Source: a phage
DNA length: 40,362 bases
Direction: 5' to 3' (one strand)
Sequence record: OZ418233.1
The notes under the pieces were generated by a model. That model was not told where the DNA came from and made no database searches. It was given only the letters and a program-made list of their open reading frames with translations. The translations under genes and the position numbers were made by a program. Position 1 is the first letter of the stretch. Every line of letters starts with the position of its first letter. This document shows, piece after piece, positions 22,113 through 37,421 of this stretch.

Positions 22113-22799
22113 TCAGAAGAACCCTGCTTTGTCGTTGATGTACTCCGCGTGGGTCTGGATATCACGCAGGCATTTGCTCACACCAACGATGTAGCAGAAC
22201 ATGGTGGTCAGCTCCGCCGCCGCTCCCGATACGTCGTGCCCGTCGTCCTGTAACTGGTTCAGCAGATTCATCAGCAGTGAGTTCTCCGTCAGGCCGAGAA
22301 CACCAGACGGCGAATGAATCAGGCTACGGTAGCCGGGCTTCAGTGGGGCGCTGTAGGTTTTGTTCTCTATCTTCATTGCCTGCATCACTGCTGACGCCGT
22401 GGCGTTGGCTACCTGGTCGGCAACCATCTTTATGCGTTCTTCTTGCGGGAGCGAGTTTTTAATGTAACTTCCGGTGCGGCGGATCTGAGGAAGAACCTCA
22501 CCTGTAACCCATTTACGAAAGCGGTATGGGATAGTGCCTGGTGTCACCGCATCGCGGCAGCGGAGGATCAGTGTGTAGAGGCCTGACTCGTTGATAATAT
22601 TGGTTTCGCCTTGACGGCCTAAGTTAAATTTAGCCCTTTCATCATCATCAAGAGATTTTATTGACATAGTGGGGTTTGTCAGTTGAAGAGCTTTAATAAC
22701 GTCTTTGGCAACAAACCAAGGATTTCCATCAATAACAATGGCTCGAATGGTTGCTTCTGATTCAAAATGAAAAACAGATGGGGTTACGTTAGCAGTCAT
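22113..22799 (-). CDS. Bro-N domain protein (antirepressor-like), 228 aa
   Basis: From internal ATG with RBS AGGTGA: MTANVTPSVFHFESEATIRAIVIDGNPWFVAKDVIKALQL... is a Bro-N-type N-terminal domain; C-terminal about 65 aa is paralogous to the small protein at 23945-24217. Confidence 0.7.
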   Translation of the reverse strand: MTANVTPSVFHFESEATIRAIVIDGNPWFVAKDVIKALQLTNPTMSIKSLDDDERAKFNLGRQGETNIINESGLYTLILRCRDAVTPGTIPYRFRKWVTGEVLPQIRRTGSYIKNSLPQEERIKMVADQVANATASAVMQAMKIENKTYSAPLKPGYRSLIHSPSGVLGLTENSLLMNLLNQLQDDGHDVSGAAAELTTMFCYIVGVSKCLRDIQTHAEYINDKAGFF

Positions 22800-22952
22800 A
22801 GTGATCACCTTTGTAGTTAGGTTAATCACCACTACCGACGCCAATCGGTTGGTGGTGAACTGTGCAGGGTTGGCGTAACCGGCTACAAAGGACCCGGCGC
22901 ACCTTTCGGTGCCCCCACACAGCCCACCATAGAATAGGTGCGCTTTACACAT

Positions 22953-22971
22953 AAAAAAACCGCTTATGCGG
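22953..22971 (-). terminator. candidate terminator/attenuator in the leader upstream of the Bro-N gene
   Basis: On the minus strand: GCCGCATAAGCGG hairpin followed by TTTTTTTA; lies between the operator/promoter region (about 23060-23080) and the Bro-N start. Confidence 0.3.
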
Positions 22972-23065
22972 CATATGTGCCTCTGTAGTAATCCGGGACG
23001 CCAATCCCGGCACTGGATTTTGCCAGTGCCCGATTACTATGGCACAAGAGGAGTGCGATGTAAAT

Positions 23066-23080
23066 TTACCGTAAAGGTAA
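23066..23080. promoter_or_regulatory. operator-like motif TTACC-GTAAA-GGTAA
   Basis: Perfect palindrome; on the minus strand it follows a -35/-10-like pair (TTGATT, 18 bp, TATCAT). Confidence 0.55.
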
Positions 23081-23158
23081 TGATAAGCGCGAAGAAACAT
23101 TAAAATCAACCGTATTTGGTTGATTGCGTTTAACGCTTGATCACCTGAAAGCAAGATA

Positions 23159-23173
23159 TTACCTTTAAGGTAA
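23159..23173. promoter_or_regulatory. operator-like motif TTACC-TTTAA-GGTAA
   Basis: Perfect palindrome 20 bp upstream of the ATG of the 242-aa gene. Confidence 0.55.
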
Positions 23174-23193
23174 TGTTATTGTGAGGAAAAGCA

Positions 23194-23922
23194 ATGGAAG
23201 TTTTCTGGATAGTTGTTGGTGTGGTTGCGGTGATTATTTACGTTATCAACCAGAACAAGACTAAGATCTCTGATCGTACGGTCGTTAATCATAACAAAAC
23301 GATAAAGACCGAAGATGGGGAGATAACGATTAATCGTACACAGGTGATAGAACACACCTCTACTCAGTTTCAAAAAACTGGAGGTAATGCGCCTAATATT
23401 TCCGCACCTCCTGCTTATGATAGTGCGGTAATCCAGACATATTATAAACAGCAGGAGTTAGCAAAAGAGAGGCAACTGATTCAGCCAAAGCCGTTTACAG
23501 CTGAGATTCCACCTGGAGTGTCAACGCGTCCGGCATATCATGGAAGATTCCCTGGTGATGACATATCGTCTCAGTCATCTAAAAAAGCACCTCAGGCAAT
23601 ATCAGAGCCAGCAAGAATACCTTCTGTATCGCCGCCAAAAGAAGAATCAGCTAACAGAGTTTCAAGTGGTAGCAAGCAGTGCTTGCGATGCAGAATAAAC
23701 CTTCCATATGAAAAATTCAGGAAATCGTCAAAAAATCCAGATGGATTGACTAAATGGTGTGCAAGGTGTCTCGATGGCCCAAAGAATACACGCCATATGA
23801 AGTGGTGCCCAATTTGTAATGTCCGCAGAAAACGAACCAGCTTTTACCCTAATAATCAAAATGCGGACGGCTTAATGGCATGGTGCAAAACGTGCTGGGA
23901 TGAGCACAAAGCGAAACGATAG
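23194..23922 (+). CDS. membrane-anchored protein with two CxxC zinc-ribbon-like pairs (242 aa)
   Basis: RBS GAGGAAAA; N-terminal hydrophobic helix followed by basic residues; Pro/Ser-rich linker; C-terminal C-x2-C repeats (CLRC, CARC, CPIC, CKTC). Confidence 0.55.
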   Translation: MEVFWIVVGVVAVIIYVINQNKTKISDRTVVNHNKTIKTEDGEITINRTQVIEHTSTQFQKTGGNAPNISAPPAYDSAVIQTYYKQQELAKERQLIQPKPFTAEIPPGVSTRPAYHGRFPGDDISSQSSKKAPQAISEPARIPSVSPPKEESANRVSSGSKQCLRCRINLPYEKFRKSSKNPDGLTKWCARCLDGPKNTRHMKWCPICNVRRKRTSFYPNNQNADGLMAWCKTCWDEHKAKR

Positions 23923-23944
23923 GCCGCTCTTGCGGCCTTTAAAT

Positions 23945-24217
23945 TTACCGGGTTTGTTTTCGTAATTGTTCGGCACAATAGTCGAGATGTGTTTGCAGAT
24001 CCCGCATAGACATCTGTGAGCTGGTGACGTAGTTAATCAGTGCAGTCAGTTCGGCAAGTGGGCCATCGACATTAAATCCATCCTTATCGAGATCCCGGAG
24101 TAATTTCATCAAGTGCGATCCCTCCACCAGTGACTTGACGCCTCCCGGCGTGTGAATCCTTTCGGTAAATCCGTCTTCCAGTGGATAGTGATACTGCTGC
24201 ATCTTAATCTTCTCCAT
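23945..24217 (-). CDS. small antirepressor-like protein (Bro C-terminal-domain paralog), 85-90 aa
   Basis: About 45% identical by eye over 60 aa to the C-terminus of the Bro-N protein (…LAELT…RD[IL]QTH…); second ATG at 24202 has RBS GGAGAAG; LexA-box-like palindrome immediately upstream. Confidence 0.55.
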   Translation of the reverse strand: MEKIKMQQYHYPLEDGFTERIHTPGGVKSLVEGSHLMKLLRDLDKDGFNVDGPLAELTALINYVTSSQMSMRDLQTHLDYCAEQLRKQTR

Positions 24218-24221
24218 GCAA

Positions 24222-24243
24222 TAACTGTATATTTATACAGTAT
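24222..24243. promoter_or_regulatory. LexA (SOS) box candidate
   Basis: TAACTGTATATTTATACAGTAT contains CTGT-N8-ACAG with AT-rich spacer, one mismatch from the E. coli consensus TACTGTATATATATACAGTA as I recall it; located just upstream of the small antirepressor-like gene. Confidence 0.65.
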
Positions 24244-24279
24244 CAAATAATTTGTTTGCTATCCAGCACGTTTTGCAAA

Positions 24280-24294
24280 TTACCTAAAAGGTAA
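24280..24294. promoter_or_regulatory. operator-like motif TTACC-TAAAA-GGTAA
   Basis: Perfect palindrome in the divergent intergenic region between the small antirepressor-like gene and the tailspike gene. Confidence 0.55.
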
Positions 24295-24398
24295 TATCTA
24301 TTTATATTCACAGTATTTCTATCCATATGTGGTTTTTCAGGTAATAGAATAACCAGATATGCGGCGCAACGGGTGCTGCGACTATCTGGAGATTTAAC

Positions 24399-26588
24399 AT
24401 GACGGTCTCAACCGAAGTTGACCACAACGAATACACCGGTAACGGCGTTACGACATCATTTCCGTATACCTTCCGTATTTTCAAAAAAACCGACCTGGTT
24501 GTTCAGGTGTCTGACCTGAACGGGAACGTAACAGAATTGGTTCTGGATACCGGTTATAAGGTAACTGGAGCGGGCACTTATAGTGGCGGTGAAGTGGTTC
24601 TCCCGTCGCCGCTTGCTGCTGGCTGGCGAATTACGATAGAGCGTGTGCTTGATGTGGTGCAGGAGACTGATCTTCGCAATCAGGGAAAATTTTTCCCCGA
24701 AGTTCATGAAGATGCATTTGACTACCTGACGATGCTGATCCAGCGATGTTTTGGGTGGTTCAGACGTGCATTGATGAAACCATCTTTGCTTGCAAAATAT
24801 TACGATGCAAAGCAAAACAAAATTTCTAACCTTGCAGATCCATCATTTGAGCAGGACGCTGTAAATAATCGCTCAATGCGTAATTATGTCGATGCTGCAA
24901 TCGCCGGGGTTGTTGGTGGTTTTGGTTGGTTTATACCGTCAGGAAGCGGGGCAAGACAACGAACATTTCAAAGCAAAATGAGGGATATAATTTCTCCTTG
25001 TGATTACGAAGATAATATTTTTATGATTAAGGAGTTGATATCCAAAGGCAAAAATGCCGCTGTTTTTAACTCATATTATACTTTTGTTATTACTGTTGGC
25101 GAATGGGGTGATTACCCTACACTCAAAGATGCAATCATTGCAGCCCAGTCAATGAGACCTATGTGGGATGGTGGTAATGCTTTCTGCGAAATAAGAATTA
25201 AGACCGGGCATATTATCAACTATCAAATTGAATTCAGTTCAGGTGTTGATTTGTCTTGGATTAAAATAACATCAGAAGACTCAGTGGTTTTCTCTGATAC
25301 TCGTTTGTTTACTAAAATCGTTAGAACGTATTACGAATACAAGTATTTATTTTACATTTGCGATGCAGCAAAAAGTCCTGTATTTGCTATTCAGATCGAA
25401 GAAAATAGAGATGATAGCGATGTTTGTGCATTTATTGTAACTCAAAAAGCTGAACTTAATTTCTATCCGTATTCAGGTGCTCGAAAGTTCTACGTTGGAA
25501 TTCATGGTAGTTTTGGTGCAAAAATTAGTGCATATCATACCGGATGTGCTCCTGATGAGGAAAGTGTTGCTGCATATATGCCAGAAGGGTATTACGTATG
25601 TGATTTTTCTTATAGCAGATACTCTTCCCTGCAACTGGTAAATAATGTCAAGGCATCAATGCCTGTAAGCAAGTTTGAACGGTGCACAGAGAGTACGGTT
25701 GCGTCAGTTAATTGTATTTATAATGTTAAAGCAGATTTTCAGGGGTCAAGTGCAAGCTATTGTTATATAGGATGGAATGTAAGAGATGGTTCAAATGTTA
25801 ATATACGCGACCATAAAACTATACATTGCTCATATCGTGGATTAACCTGCATTCATACAGCATATGTTGATGCAAGACGACATGACGTTGAAGAAAGTGA
25901 TGCAGAAACAAGTGGTAAAGTCCTTGAACCAAATATTGAAAAAGGTTTTTATGGATGTGCACTTGGTGTGCGTATTGATGGTGCGGGTTGCGTTGATGTT
26001 GCTGGTAATGATATGCGCAATTGTGGAACAGCCGTTAATGCAGACACTGGTGCTGTTATTTCAGGAAAGGCTGTAGATATCTCAGGGGCTGAGCTGGGAT
26101 TTGATTGCCATGCAGGAGCATCTGTTAATTTTCCAAGGCTATGGGGTACAGATATAAAAAAATTAATGCACCTCCAAGATGGTGTAAGGTTTAACTCTAA
26201 TATTTGTCATGTATTTGGTGCAAATCCCACAAAAGATATTAGATGGATTGATGTAGAGAGATCTGAAGCTTCTTTTATGAATGCAACGCTGGATGCAGAT
26301 TCAGGATTTATTGCCGACTGTGGTAGTAGGATAACCATTGAAGGAAGTAAAGTTAAAAACCAAACAATAAGAAGTTTTTTTGGATCATATGTGGCTATAA
26401 ATAATACTGTTGCTGACAGAACTTATTCAGATATAGCCGATGTTCCGCAGTTGACTATTAGTGGAGGATCTTTTATTTCTGCTACAGGATATTCTAATTC
26501 TGACTCCAGCCCTCTGAGGTTGAGCACAACACGAAATACACTTGGCGTTGGAGGAGCCATATTTTCAACCAATGGGGAAGTTTCATGA
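24399..26588 (+). CDS. tailspike / receptor-binding depolymerase (729 aa)
   Basis: N-terminal about 130 aa resembles the conserved particle-binding module of podovirus tailspikes (from memory); the remaining body is visibly AT-rich; RBS GGAG. Confidence 0.75.
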   Translation: MTVSTEVDHNEYTGNGVTTSFPYTFRIFKKTDLVVQVSDLNGNVTELVLDTGYKVTGAGTYSGGEVVLPSPLAAGWRITIERVLDVVQETDLRNQGKFFPEVHEDAFDYLTMLIQRCFGWFRRALMKPSLLAKYYDAKQNKISNLADPSFEQDAVNNRSMRNYVDAAIAGVVGGFGWFIPSGSGARQRTFQSKMRDIISPCDYEDNIFMIKELISKGKNAAVFNSYYTFVITVGEWGDYPTLKDAIIAAQSMRPMWDGGNAFCEIRIKTGHIINYQIEFSSGVDLSWIKITSEDSVVFSDTRLFTKIVRTYYEYKYLFYICDAAKSPVFAIQIEENRDDSDVCAFIVTQKAELNFYPYSGARKFYVGIHGSFGAKISAYHTGCAPDEESVAAYMPEGYYVCDFSYSRYSSLQLVNNVKASMPVSKFERCTESTVASVNCIYNVKADFQGSSASYCYIGWNVRDGSNVNIRDHKTIHCSYRGLTCIHTAYVDARRHDVEESDAETSGKVLEPNIEKGFYGCALGVRIDGAGCVDVAGNDMRNCGTAVNADTGAVISGKAVDISGAELGFDCHAGASVNFPRLWGTDIKKLMHLQDGVRFNSNICHVFGANPTKDIRWIDVERSEASFMNATLDADSGFIADCGSRITIEGSKVKNQTIRSFFGSYVAINNTVADRTYSDIADVPQLTISGGSFISATGYSNSDSSPLRLSTTRNTLGVGGAIFSTNGEVS

Positions 26589-29190: not shown

Positions 29191-30438
29191 GTGCTTACCG
29201 ATACAAAATTAAAAAACCTCAAGCCGCAGGACAAACTGTACAAGGTCTCCGATCGTGACGGGCTGTATGTAGCTGTACTTACGTCAGGCACGGTCTCGTT
29301 TCGCTATGACTACCGTATCAACGGTCGCCGCGAAACACTGGTAATCGGGCAGTATGGGCGTGACGGTATCAGCCTGGCAGAAGCGCGGGAAGAACTGATT
29401 GCTGCAAAGAAGCTGCTTAAAGCAGGCCAGTCACCGGCTGCGGCTAAACGTGACGGTATCAAAAAGATTCGTGGTGCTGAGACGTTTGCGGTACATACCG
29501 ACAGTTATATGAAACACGTCATCCTGGCTGACAGTACCCGCGCAATGAAGCAGGCGGTGATCGACCGTGACATACTTCCGGTTCTTGGCAACAAAATGAT
29601 GGCTGAAATTACCACATCGATGGTTCGTGATTTGTGTGACCGGATTGTCGAACGCGGTGGTCGGGCAACAGCAGTACAGGCCAGGGAGATCATCAGCAGC
29701 GTATACCGTCACGCCAATGATCGTGGTCATGGTTTGTTTAATCCTGCGGCTGACATTAAACCTTCGTCTATCGCCATATTTAAACCACGAGAGCGAACAC
29801 TGACACCAGAAGAAATTGGCCTGTTCTTCCGCACGCTGGATGCCATTGGTGCTATGGGCACTATGAAAATGGCTTTAAAGCTGGTGCTTATCACTATGGT
29901 TCGTAAAGGCGAATTCACCAACGCAACGTGGGATGAAATAGATTTTAAAAAATGGACATGGACAATTCCTTCAGACCGCATGAAGGGAAGCCGGGCGCAC
30001 GTTATTTACCTGCCTAAACAGGCTCAGGATATATTGGTCGGGTTGCAGATGTGCGCTGGTGGAAGTGAATATCTGGTTCCTGGTCGTTACAATTTCCGGA
30101 AGCCATTATCTAATGCCGCGCTGAACTCTCTGATCGACAGAACGGTGAAAATAATAAATGAAGATGGTGAGCATATTCAGGGCTTCACCGTACACGATAT
30201 GCGCCGTACAGCAAGTACGTTGTTGCATGAGGCTGGTTATCCTTCAGACTGGATTGAAAAGGCTCTGGCACATGAGCAGAAAGGTGTGCGCGCCGTATAT
30301 AACAAAGCGGAATACGCCAGACAGCGCGCCTACATGTTGCAGCAGTGGGCCGATATGATTGATTCCTGGATTGACGGGGAGCATACGGATCTGATTCCGT
30401 TCTCCCCGTCGAAGTTTGAGAAGTGGATGGCGGGATAA
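29191..30438 (+). CDS. int: tyrosine integrase (P4-like, N-terminal arm-binding domain)
   Basis: GTG start; N-terminus LTDTKLKNLKPQDKLYKVSDRDGLYVAV typical of P4-family integrases; C-terminal region has R...H-x-x-R...Y-type catalytic features (HDMRRTASTLL, AVYNKAEY). Confidence 0.85.
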   Translation: MLTDTKLKNLKPQDKLYKVSDRDGLYVAVLTSGTVSFRYDYRINGRRETLVIGQYGRDGISLAEAREELIAAKKLLKAGQSPAAAKRDGIKKIRGAETFAVHTDSYMKHVILADSTRAMKQAVIDRDILPVLGNKMMAEITTSMVRDLCDRIVERGGRATAVQAREIISSVYRHANDRGHGLFNPAADIKPSSIAIFKPRERTLTPEEIGLFFRTLDAIGAMGTMKMALKLVLITMVRKGEFTNATWDEIDFKKWTWTIPSDRMKGSRAHVIYLPKQAQDILVGLQMCAGGSEYLVPGRYNFRKPLSNAALNSLIDRTVKIINEDGEHIQGFTVHDMRRTASTLLHEAGYPSDWIEKALAHEQKGVRAVYNKAEYARQRAYMLQQWADMIDSWIDGEHTDLIPFSPSKFEKWMAG

Positions 30439-34349: not shown

Positions 34350-34934
34350 TTATTGTTTGTTTTTTTCGTTCTGGTTGATGACAAATTCAATGTAACTTTC
34401 GATCTTTGCCTTCTCTGTTTCAGGTAGCAATGCGTAGCGCGAGCGGTCATAGTTGATAGTCGCGGGGTCGTGCGGGTGAATCAGTAATTCATATCCGTGA
34501 CGCCCAAATGCGGATGCAACATTCTCCAGGGTGGAAATGGAAACGCTGACCTCATTGTTTAACAGGCGGCTGATTGTTACCTGGGCGACGCCGGATGCGC
34601 GGTGAAGTTTTCCCTGCGTTGAAAGGTCGCGGCTTTCGCTCATCCAGCGTTCCAGGTTGTGAGCCGCCAGTTGACCAATGTCGCTTGGTCCGACAGGCTG
34701 AAAACCTTCCTGAGAAAGCGAGCGATCGATATCAAGCCAGTTACGGGGTTTATTGGCGGCAGCTTCAATTTTTCGCGCAACCTGGTCGCCGATAACCTTC
34801 TTGCCAAGAGCCCAGCGGTTTACCAGATTTGCCTGAGTTCCAAGTTTTTCAGCCATCCGCGTCTGAACACCATTGAATTCACGGTCGATCAAGTCGTTGA
34901 GATTTTGCCTGCGGACGTCCTGGATACTTTTCAT
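34350..34934 (-). CDS. prophage repressor candidate with two HTH (XRE-like) domains, no peptidase domain
   Basis: 194 aa; two HTH-like segments (…TRMAEKLGTQANLVNRWALGK… and …SGVAQVTISRLLNNEVSVSISTLENVASAFG…); divergent from a Cro-like gene with two palindromic operators between them; no Ala-Gly/Ser...Lys S24-type self-cleavage module seen. Confidence 0.55.
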   Translation of the reverse strand: MKSIQDVRRQNLNDLIDREFNGVQTRMAEKLGTQANLVNRWALGKKVIGDQVARKIEAAANKPRNWLDIDRSLSQEGFQPVGPSDIGQLAAHNLERWMSESRDLSTQGKLHRASGVAQVTISRLLNNEVSVSISTLENVASAFGRHGYELLIHPHDPATINYDRSRYALLPETEKAKIESYIEFVINQNEKNKQ

Positions 34935-37406: not shown

Positions 37407-37421
37407 TTACCTAAGAGGTAA
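37407..37421. promoter_or_regulatory. operator-like motif TTACC-TAAGA-GGTAA overlapping an RBS
   Basis: Perfect palindrome ending 3 nt before ATG 37425; its right half doubles as the SD (GAGGT). Confidence 0.55.

Follow-up and report, generated by a model that had tools for sequence, protein, structure and literature searches.

The gene at 23194..23922 of the phage sequence OZ418233.1 (40,362 nucleotides; this whole stretch is hereafter called the window) probably encodes a membrane-tethered zinc-finger nucleic-acid binder. We tentatively propose, in addition, that the protein acts in phage-versus-phage competition, with a role in exclusion or abortive infection. The evidence comes from the zinc-finger domain, from the membrane anchor and its tether, and from the control and genomic context of the gene in this and other phages. 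The positions of all features are collected in Table 1.

The gene and its conservation

Judged by comparison, the open reading frame (ORF) is a genuine gene, because it matches the PHROG 6762 profile of unknown function from end to end (E 5.7e-150, residues 1-242 on positions 1-242 of 242), because homologues form clusters and E. coli strains carry it, and because of its substitution pattern relative to Escherichia phage TL-2011b. Codons 1-99 are identical in the two phages, and the linker shows 2 synonymous and 8 non-synonymous changes. In the finger domain 5 synonymous and 0 non-synonymous changes were found, which suggests that the fingers are under strong purifying selection. The gene is present in 133 of the 5426 complete E. 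coli genomes (~2.5%), where it is chromosomal in every case, and the chromosome of E. coli 118UI contains an identical copy of window positions 23100-23925.

The GenBank record of TL-2011b (L001 5940-7028) gives only a misc_feature, 'similar to hypothetical protein', at this locus; the ORF of 242 amino acids is intact there. Truncated or frameshifted E. coli copies of 31-167 amino acids (P0007, P0008, P0017, P0036-P0049) were also found in public assemblies, with 92-100% identity over the aligned part. These copies may be assembly artefacts or may reflect frequent inactivation.

Zinc-finger domain

The C-terminal part of the protein consists of two Cys4 units (residues 160-242), and all 8 cysteines are invariant across 37 diverse family members. 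Zinc binding by these units is predicted. In the full-length AlphaFold2 (AF2) model the predicted local distance difference test (pLDDT) score of the units is >90, and its mean is 88 when the domain is modelled alone. The second CxxC of each unit lies at the end of a strand and the N-terminus of a helix (strand 185-189 and helix 190-194; strand 227-231 and helix 232-241). The initial annotation, made from the sequence before this analysis, had described two zinc-ribbon-like units. The two units themselves stand, whereas the AF2 model suggests that their fold is treble-clef or beta4-alpha2-like, as in Stc1-like fingers, and not that of classic zinc ribbons. The net charge of the finger domain is +14, and it ranges from +10 to +19 in the family (median +14, n=37).

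The fingers were compared with known families at the levels of profile, structure and domain association. Against the Pfam family Stc1 (PF12898), with which the protein shares the eight-cysteine tandem finger, the full protein scored 21.1 bits and the C-terminal domain alone 23.3 bits, both below the gathering cut-off of 24.8. Each unit aligns to positions 51-83 of the Stc1 profile, the tandem CxxC...CxxC feature is present, and a soluble variant of the family (P0034) scored above the cut-off (26.6 bits). Single units are matched by PHROG profiles for endonuclease VII, HNH, 'Lar-like' and other proteins (E 2e-11 to 2e-5), and all these matches fall in the N-terminal regions of the profiles, which are non-catalytic. 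A sequence profile search of the PDB gave the N-terminus of PacI (E 0.085), and a Foldseek search against viral models gave 43 matches at E<=1e-3 in phage and giant-virus proteins, mostly HNH, beta-beta-alpha-Me, EndoVII, 'Stc1 domain' and 'Zn-finger' proteins. When the finger profile was run in an exhaustive hidden Markov model (HMM) search, 3046 representative proteins reached E<=1e-3 and 228 reached E<=1e-10. This breadth came from the exhaustive search; a word-indexed search with the finger profile gave two new proteins only. Among 98 multi-repeat relatives, 55 match Stc1 at E<=0.001, and the domains that accompany the finger in these relatives are HNH, HNH_5, HNH_4, Endonuclease_7, Bro-N, KilA-N, T5orf172 and helicase.

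The restriction enzyme Hpy99I contains two tandem beta4-alpha2 repeats, each with a structural zinc held by two CxxC motifs, and its first, non-catalytic repeat enters the DNA major groove and contacts bases (PMC2699513). In structure and sequence, the two units are closest to the Hpy99I repeats, the N-terminal zinc motif of PacI and the N-terminal fingers of phage HNH and EndoVII nucleases. The window protein differs from these enzymes in that it has neither the catalytic His/Asn nor a nuclease domain; its only globular part is the pair of fingers, which the tether holds at the membrane.

The possibility of a cryptic HNH nuclease was rejected, since the catalytic residues are absent. HNH and Endonuclease_7 were not matched in the Pfam scan of the window protein. 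The position of the HNH D-H is occupied by the invariant D183-G184 and D225-G226, and no His is conserved throughout the 37 family members. Nuclease activity is therefore not expected, in agreement with the initial annotation, which had seen no obvious enzymatic motif. The fingers would instead be a non-catalytic module that binds DNA (or other nucleic acid) independently of sequence. We infer this because the closest relatives are nuclease fingers, and from the domain association and the conserved charge. If this is true, the protein represents an accessory finger of nucleases that has been reused without its nuclease.

Membrane anchor, hairpin and tether

The N-terminus of the protein is strongly hydrophobic (Kyte-Doolittle mean 2.33 for residues 1-19). 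AF2 models residues 3-20 as a helix with pLDDT of about 90, and the basic residues K22, K24 and R28 follow it. The number of residues ahead of the helix is 0-3 in 36 of the 37 diverse family members, and 2 in the window protein. An acidic residue is found at positions 2-4 in 32 of the 37, and the net charge of the 15 residues C-terminal to the helix averages +1.7 over all 37. The protein is predicted to be a bitopic inner-membrane protein of N-out/C-in topology, because of the positive-inside rule, the charge of +14 in the finger domain and the eight cysteines. Essentially nothing would then be exposed to the periplasm. A periplasmic C-terminal domain was rejected on the same three grounds, the eight cysteines needing a reducing compartment.

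The helix is followed by a putative juxtamembrane beta-hairpin and by a long tether, which contains 14 P, 13 S and 9 Q in residues 57-158 and has pLDDT <50. A weak helix at residues 77-93 is seen in AF2 and in the family alignment. The hydrophobic helix with basic residues behind it, the cytoplasmic placement of the C-terminal domain and the Pro/Ser-rich linker had all been proposed in the initial annotation, and each of them is borne out by these results, the placement as a prediction. A profile search with the N-terminal helix-hairpin region found truncated copies of the same family only, and no fusion to other domains. The helix-hairpin module may thus do more than anchor the protein, because it is conserved more than a plain anchor needs and was never found with another domain.

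The accessory cassette and its phage

By its gene content, which includes terminase, portal and large internal/ejection proteins, the window is an epsilon15/phiV10-like (Uetakevirus) temperate podophage. It also contains a lysis cassette ahead of the integrase gene. In a comparison with phage records, the region 22900-24400 was 95% identical to TL-2011b over its full length. Among the 18 matching phage records, the two TL-2011b records alone span the whole query, and 14 carry the flanks only, on both sides (2 pieces, 42-44% coverage). These flank-only records include phiV10, ZX5, phiv142-3 and the O157 typing phages 9 and 10. Alignment of the window, phiV10 and TL-2011b delimited an insertion of about 23092-23944 (~850 bp). 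The view that the gene belongs to an accessory island, already expressed in the initial annotation, thus holds. The stem-loop AGGCCGCTCTTGCGGCCT at the right end of the cassette is likely a bidirectional terminator, common to the convergent gene 23945..24217.

Family spread and genomic context

Full-length homologues form 33 clusters in Enterobacterales, with members from E. coli, Superficieibacter, Enterobacter, Citrobacter, Salmonella, Serratia, Providencia, Pectobacterium and Buttiauxella. Of the top 150 representatives, clustered at 50% identity, ~45 combine anchor, hairpin, linker and both fingers in 180-240 amino acids; they come from phages of Gamma- and Betaproteobacteria. Named members are from Edwardsiella and Kingella, and genome matches add Acinetobacter, Marinobacterium, Oceanobacter, Pseudoalteromonas, Neptunomonas, Aggregatibacter, Haemophilus and Neisseria. 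Family members are annotated as hypothetical throughout or bear Stc1-derived names, and a literature search found no paper on the PHROG 6762-type membrane double-finger family. In the variants P0034, P0035 and P0060, a short amphipathic N-terminus and a PQ-rich linker replace the helix.

The context of the homologues was surveyed on viral and genomic contigs (L numbers) by simple ORF calling, Pfam and a purpose-built CI profile. In many lineages the gene lies 15-25 nt after the stop codon of a cI-like repressor gene, on the same strand (L019-26, L029/30/33/48, L038, L039/40/53); these upstream repressors are of the helix-turn-helix (HTH) type, mostly with Peptidase_S24. In others it lies 54-593 nt downstream of the repressor on the same strand (L007, L027, L046, L047), or it faces the 3' end of the repressor gene in convergent orientation (L028, L035/52, L049). 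In total, cI adjacency was seen in about twelve separate lineages, roughly half of the sample. The position downstream of cI, as in lambda rexAB and BTP1 bstA, is a hotspot of prophage abortive-infection genes, which share the highly active repressor promoter (PMC8585504).

The window copy is located in the ant/tailspike accessory region and not beside cI. Homologues in other epsilon15-like phages (Enterobacter L003, Serratia L004/5, Providencia L008/9, and L012) likewise lie between the ejection-protein genes and the tailspike gene and adjoin antirepressor-type genes with Bro-N, KilA-N or ORF6N, often in the orientation opposite to that in the window. A lambda-like siphophage (L010) carries its homologue antisense within the tail operon, and a small integrative element of Buttiauxella (L006) carries another. 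The gene behaves as a moron, because it is a self-contained cassette that occurs in either orientation, in podophages, a siphophage and a small element.

Two further arrangements were observed. In one prophage lineage of marine Gammaproteobacteria (L029 6654-7307; also L030, L033 and L048), the homologue overlaps by 34 nt with the next gene, which encodes a protein with staphylococcal-nuclease (SNase) and Excalibur domains, in an apparent operon of cI, homologue and nuclease. In the viral contigs L031/L032 (6547-7272, minus strand) and L036/L037 (6326-7057, minus strand), the homologues have a different N-terminal helix. The convergent neighbour there encodes a protein of ~240 amino acids with a weak DnaJ-type CxxCxGxG zinc motif, and no recognisable cI was found. 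Related homologues occur in Aggregatibacter and Haemophilus genomes (L050, L051).

Promoter, operator and control

A perfect operator site close to the start codon had been pointed out in the initial annotation, and this analysis placed it in a wider set. The operator core TTACC-N5-GGTAA occurs at 14 sites in the window against 0.69 expected, and 14 was reached by 0 of 100 shuffles. Two operator pairs lie on either side of the repressor gene 34350..34934, and one pair precedes a RusA-like gene. Single operators are found before int and before each accessory transcription unit, and the operator at 37407 overlaps the Shine-Dalgarno sequence of the next gene. From these fourteen dispersed operators, the repressor therefore appears to control many separate transcription units directly. 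The assignment of the repressor encoded at 34350..34934 as the presumed ligand of the motif is drawn from its position. Over-expression of the equivalent repressor of a related phage blocks lytic growth (PMC9782041).

The region ahead of the gene gave no match in a generic sigma-70 promoter scan, because the -10 element is weak. The promoter proposed here is based on a comparison of five epsilon15-like lineages. Upstream of the homologue, TTGAnn, a 17-nt spacer and TA(A)CCnT were found in 5 of 5 lineages, and the spacer sequences are unrelated. TA(A)CCnT is the left arm of the operator, which is of the TTACC-N5-GGTAA type in 4 lineages and TTAACC-N5-GGTTAA in Providencia; equivalent operators precede the homologues in L003, L004/5, L008/9 and L012. 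These facts suggest that the gene is driven by its own weak sigma-70 promoter, the -10 of which lies inside the repressor operator. Such an arrangement is as expected for repression through promoter occlusion. Since the operator overlaps the -10, the gene is predicted to be off in an established lysogen of this phage; the protein would be made when the repressor is lacking, early in infection or after induction. A LexA box was looked for at the gene's own promoter and was not found; the sole strong box in the search of the window is at 24223-24242.

Proposed function

We propose that the helix anchors the protein in the inner membrane and that the flexible tether of ~100 residues lets the fingers reach DNA near the membrane, so that they would bind DNA or other nucleic acid on the cytoplasmic side of the inner membrane. 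Entering DNA might then be captured or blocked at the site of entry. Alternatively, foreign phage DNA might be sensed, and the membrane perturbed via clustered helix-hairpin modules. The epsilon15-like copy would be made early after infection or after induction.

A precedent for this design is found in AbiP of Lactococcus and PdpSau of S. aureus prophages, abortive-infection proteins which combine an N-terminal membrane helix with a basic cytoplasmic nucleic-acid-binding domain (PMC10127798). Both halt replication and depolarise the membrane (PMC10127798). The window protein resembles them in its helix and its basic (+14) domain, for which nucleic-acid binding is predicted, and PdpSau, too, is encoded by an accessory gene of prophages. 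The prophage expresses PdpSau, whereas the -10 of the window gene is covered by a repressor operator.

The exclusion reading is proposed because the cI-downstream or ant-adjacent position matches known sites of exclusion genes. About half of the sampled family lineages sit at the 3' end of cI, like RexAB of lambda and BstA of BTP1, and BstA also has a DNA-binding module, KilA-N. There is no homology to either, however; the window copy is not beside cI, and RexAB has two components. In P22, sieA adjoins the antirepressor operon, in the interval from the ejection-protein genes to the tailspike gene. P22 SieA and P1 Sim resemble the window gene in this position beside an ant operon, and in the window a C4-type antisense RNA even precedes ant. 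SieA, a polytopic protein, and Sim, which is processed and exported, lack zinc fingers and have no sequence similarity to the window protein. The immI region of P1 consists of sim, c4, icd and ant1/2 (PMC6906374).

Superinfection exclusion had been one candidate of the initial annotation, and of the three functions suggested there it is now the best supported. It gains support from the cI-downstream and ant-adjacent context, whereas the predicted silence of the gene in lysogens complicates simple protection of the lysogen. T4 Imm and Sp act in exclusion during lytic growth. It may be speculated that exclusion during lytic growth would reconcile both expression patterns found in the family. In its most detailed form, the proposal would be a widespread family of single-protein exclusion or abortive-infection systems in temperate phages of Proteobacteria, often linked to cI, with the window gene as its first example. 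The tethered fingers would capture DNA at the membrane, and the helix-hairpin module would then block genome entry or cluster and depolarise the membrane, as a one-chain analogue of RexA/RexB. In the epsilon15-like phages the system would have been rewired, by direct repressor control, to act in lytic growth. We regard this detailed form as rather doubtful.

Several facts weigh against the proposed reading. The case for DNA binding consists entirely of homology, domain association and charge. The tandem fingers of eukaryotic Stc1, a fungal adaptor of RNA interference and chromatin, bind a protein, Ago1. The hairpin strands (residues 26-39 and 42-55 in AF2) have low pLDDT. AbiP and PdpSau use an OB-fold-like domain that is unrelated to the window fingers in both sequence and fold. 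With its -10 covered by the operator, the window gene should be silent in the lysogen, in contrast to the cI-operon members and to sieA, rexAB and bstA. The regulatory logic of the family is thus not unified, the cI-operon members being presumably expressed in lysogens and the window copy repressed. The location in a mosaic hotspot is circumstantial evidence. Finally, no functional assignment came from PADLOC-DB 2.0.0 (no hit), NCBIfam (noise only) or Pfam.

If the proposed function is true, the proteins with anchor, hairpin, tether and two Stc1/HNH-type fingers form a new recognisable family among the few membrane-anchored nucleic-acid-binding exclusion proteins. This family spans Enterobacterales, Acinetobacter, Pasteurellaceae, Neisseriaceae and marine Gammaproteobacteria. 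Control of the same gene either by co-transcription with cI or by a repressor operator would be a natural test case for the way in which temperate phages schedule competition genes. Genes of this kind affect phage host range, and hence phage typing and the phage therapy of pathogenic E. coli.

Alternative explanations

It is worth noting that the architecture and the basic finger domain would equally suit a membrane anchor or organiser of DNA that serves the phage's own lytic programme (replication, packaging) or blocks host segregation or division, on the model of phi29 p16.7. The DNA held at the membrane would be replicating or freshly entered phage DNA, or else the host nucleoid. The p16.7 protein is early and non-essential and binds DNA non-specifically through its C-terminal domain. 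E. coli ZipA has a P/Q-rich flexible tether, and its anchor, P/Q linker and globular head are a typical tether design, which counts in favour of this explanation. Like the window protein, p16.7 and ZipA have a membrane helix at the N-terminus and, in the cytoplasm, a binding domain at the C-terminus, but their folds are unrelated and both are fixed parts of their systems, not mobile cassettes. An early promoter controlled by the repressor would also suit a lytic or toxic host-takeover function that is kept off in lysogens. Nevertheless, the gene is dispensable and patchy among near-identical phages, and it travels as an independent cassette across unrelated phage types, unlinked to replication modules. 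Many homologues, moreover, lie in a cI operon and are presumably expressed in lysogens, where the phage does not replicate. A DNA anchor of this kind is, in our judgement, unlikely.

The fingers might instead bind a protein (a repressor, an antirepressor, sigma or another host factor), and the membrane protein would then be a sequestering regulator of the immunity circuit. This is quite unlikely. The nearest relatives in sequence and fold are accessory fingers of DNA enzymes, the high positive charge is conserved, and the gene also occurs away from immunity genes, as in the tail operon of L010 and the small element L006. The features of zinc-binding anti-sigma (ZAS) proteins are lacking: HxxxCxxC is absent, the zinc domain is C-terminal, and there is no extracytoplasmic domain. 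The anti-sigma-like factor suggested in the initial annotation, of which the sequestering regulator is a broader version, is accordingly not supported as such; the Pfam search also gave no anti-sigma match.

An early anti-defence factor, either of the Lar kind that alleviates restriction or a decoy or inhibitor of a membrane-associated host nuclease, is improbable. Finger 2 does match PHROG 5558, 'Lar-like restriction alleviation protein' (E 2.7e-9), two relatives match Pfam Lar_restr_allev, and early, repressor-controlled expression would fit the timing. The window protein itself, however, has no match to Pfam Lar_restr_allev (PF14354), and 'Lar-like' is an annotation label in PHROG. A factor needed in infection only would not suit the many homologues that lie in a cI operon, and the membrane anchor is left unexplained. 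Finally, a sensor of periplasmic or envelope signals (the membrane sensor of the initial annotation) or a functionless, decaying remnant of an HNH nuclease would agree with the membrane location and with the homology to nuclease-associated fingers, but both are effectively refuted by family-wide conservation: only about 2 residues stand outside the helix (0-3 in nearly all members), which leaves no sensing domain, the fingers show the purifying selection described above, and the full architecture is kept from Enterobacterales to Acinetobacter, Kingella and marine Gammaproteobacteria.

Features of the window and neighbouring immunity elements

Table 1. Positions of the gene, its protein segments, its control elements and neighbouring features in the window.
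Feature	Position	Strand	Basis or remark
Coding sequence, 242 aa, ATG start	23194..23922	+	PHROG 6762 member
Shine-Dalgarno GAGGA	23183-23187	+	6 nt 5' of ATG
Signal-anchor transmembrane helix, residues 3-20	23200..23253	+	AF2 helix, hydropathy; predicted N-out/C-in
Juxtamembrane beta-hairpin (putative), residues 26-55	23269..23358	+	T-I-K-T-E-D-G-E-I turn; sequence conservation
Disordered P/S/Q-rich tether, residues 57-158	23362..23667	+	Length and sequence vary among homologues
Zinc module 1, residues 161-196	23674..23781	+	C163, C166, C189, C192; S-S-K..D-G-L-T-K-W-C
Zinc module 2 and basic C-terminal helix, residues 203-242	23800..23919	+	C205, C208, C231, C234
Whole accessory cassette (hairpin, promoter/operator, gene, terminator)	about 23092..23944	+	Absent from phiV10 and most Uetakevirus relatives
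Inverted repeat AATCAACCGTATTTGGTTGATT	23104..23125	.	Left edge of cassette; minus-strand score terminator-like
GC-rich stem-loop AGGCCGCTCTTGCGGCCT	23921..23938	+	Overlaps stop codon 23920-23922
Perfect 17-bp palindromic operator ATTACCTTTAAGGTAAT	23158-23174	.	End 20 nt 5' of ATG
Candidate -35 hexamer TTGATC	23137..23142	+
Candidate -10 TACCTT	23160-23165		Within left arm of operator
TTACC-N5-GGTAA sites	47, 65, 3212, 22032, 23066, 23159, 24280, 29134, 34216, 34278, 34990, 35038, 37345, 37407
C4 antisense RNA	22848-22934	-	Rfam, 79.5 bits
isrK	22953-23029	-	Rfam, 76.8 bits
c4 a1/b1 target element	22990-23042	-	Rfam, 45.1 bits, just below cut-off
Near-consensus LexA box AACTGTATATTTATACAGTA	24223-24242		5 nt upstream of start of 90-aa gene 23945..24217 (-)
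Tailspike	24399..26588
Integrase (int)	29191..30438		After lysis cassette
HTH repressor gene	34350..34934	-	Replication genes next

The C4, isrK and c4 target elements occupy the interval that separates the Bro-N antirepressor ORF from the ant promoter, which is under operator control (-10 at 23085..23080, operator at 23066-23080). The stretch 22848-23042 represents an immI antisense circuit of the P1/P7 type in an epsilon15-like podophage. For the listed ORF 22113..22952 of 279 amino acids, the true start is probably an internal Met near 22799, as in the TL-2011b annotation, because the C4/isrK antisense elements occupy 22848-23042.

On the other side of the cassette, the protein of the convergent gene 23945..24217 and the neighbouring Bro-N antirepressor both match phrog_450 and phrog_15539. 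By this profile comparison, the former duplicates the antirepressor's C-terminal domain as a protein of its own. The gene is a candidate for an SOS-controlled small antirepressor; the repressor of the window (34350..34934) has no S24 self-cleavage domain.

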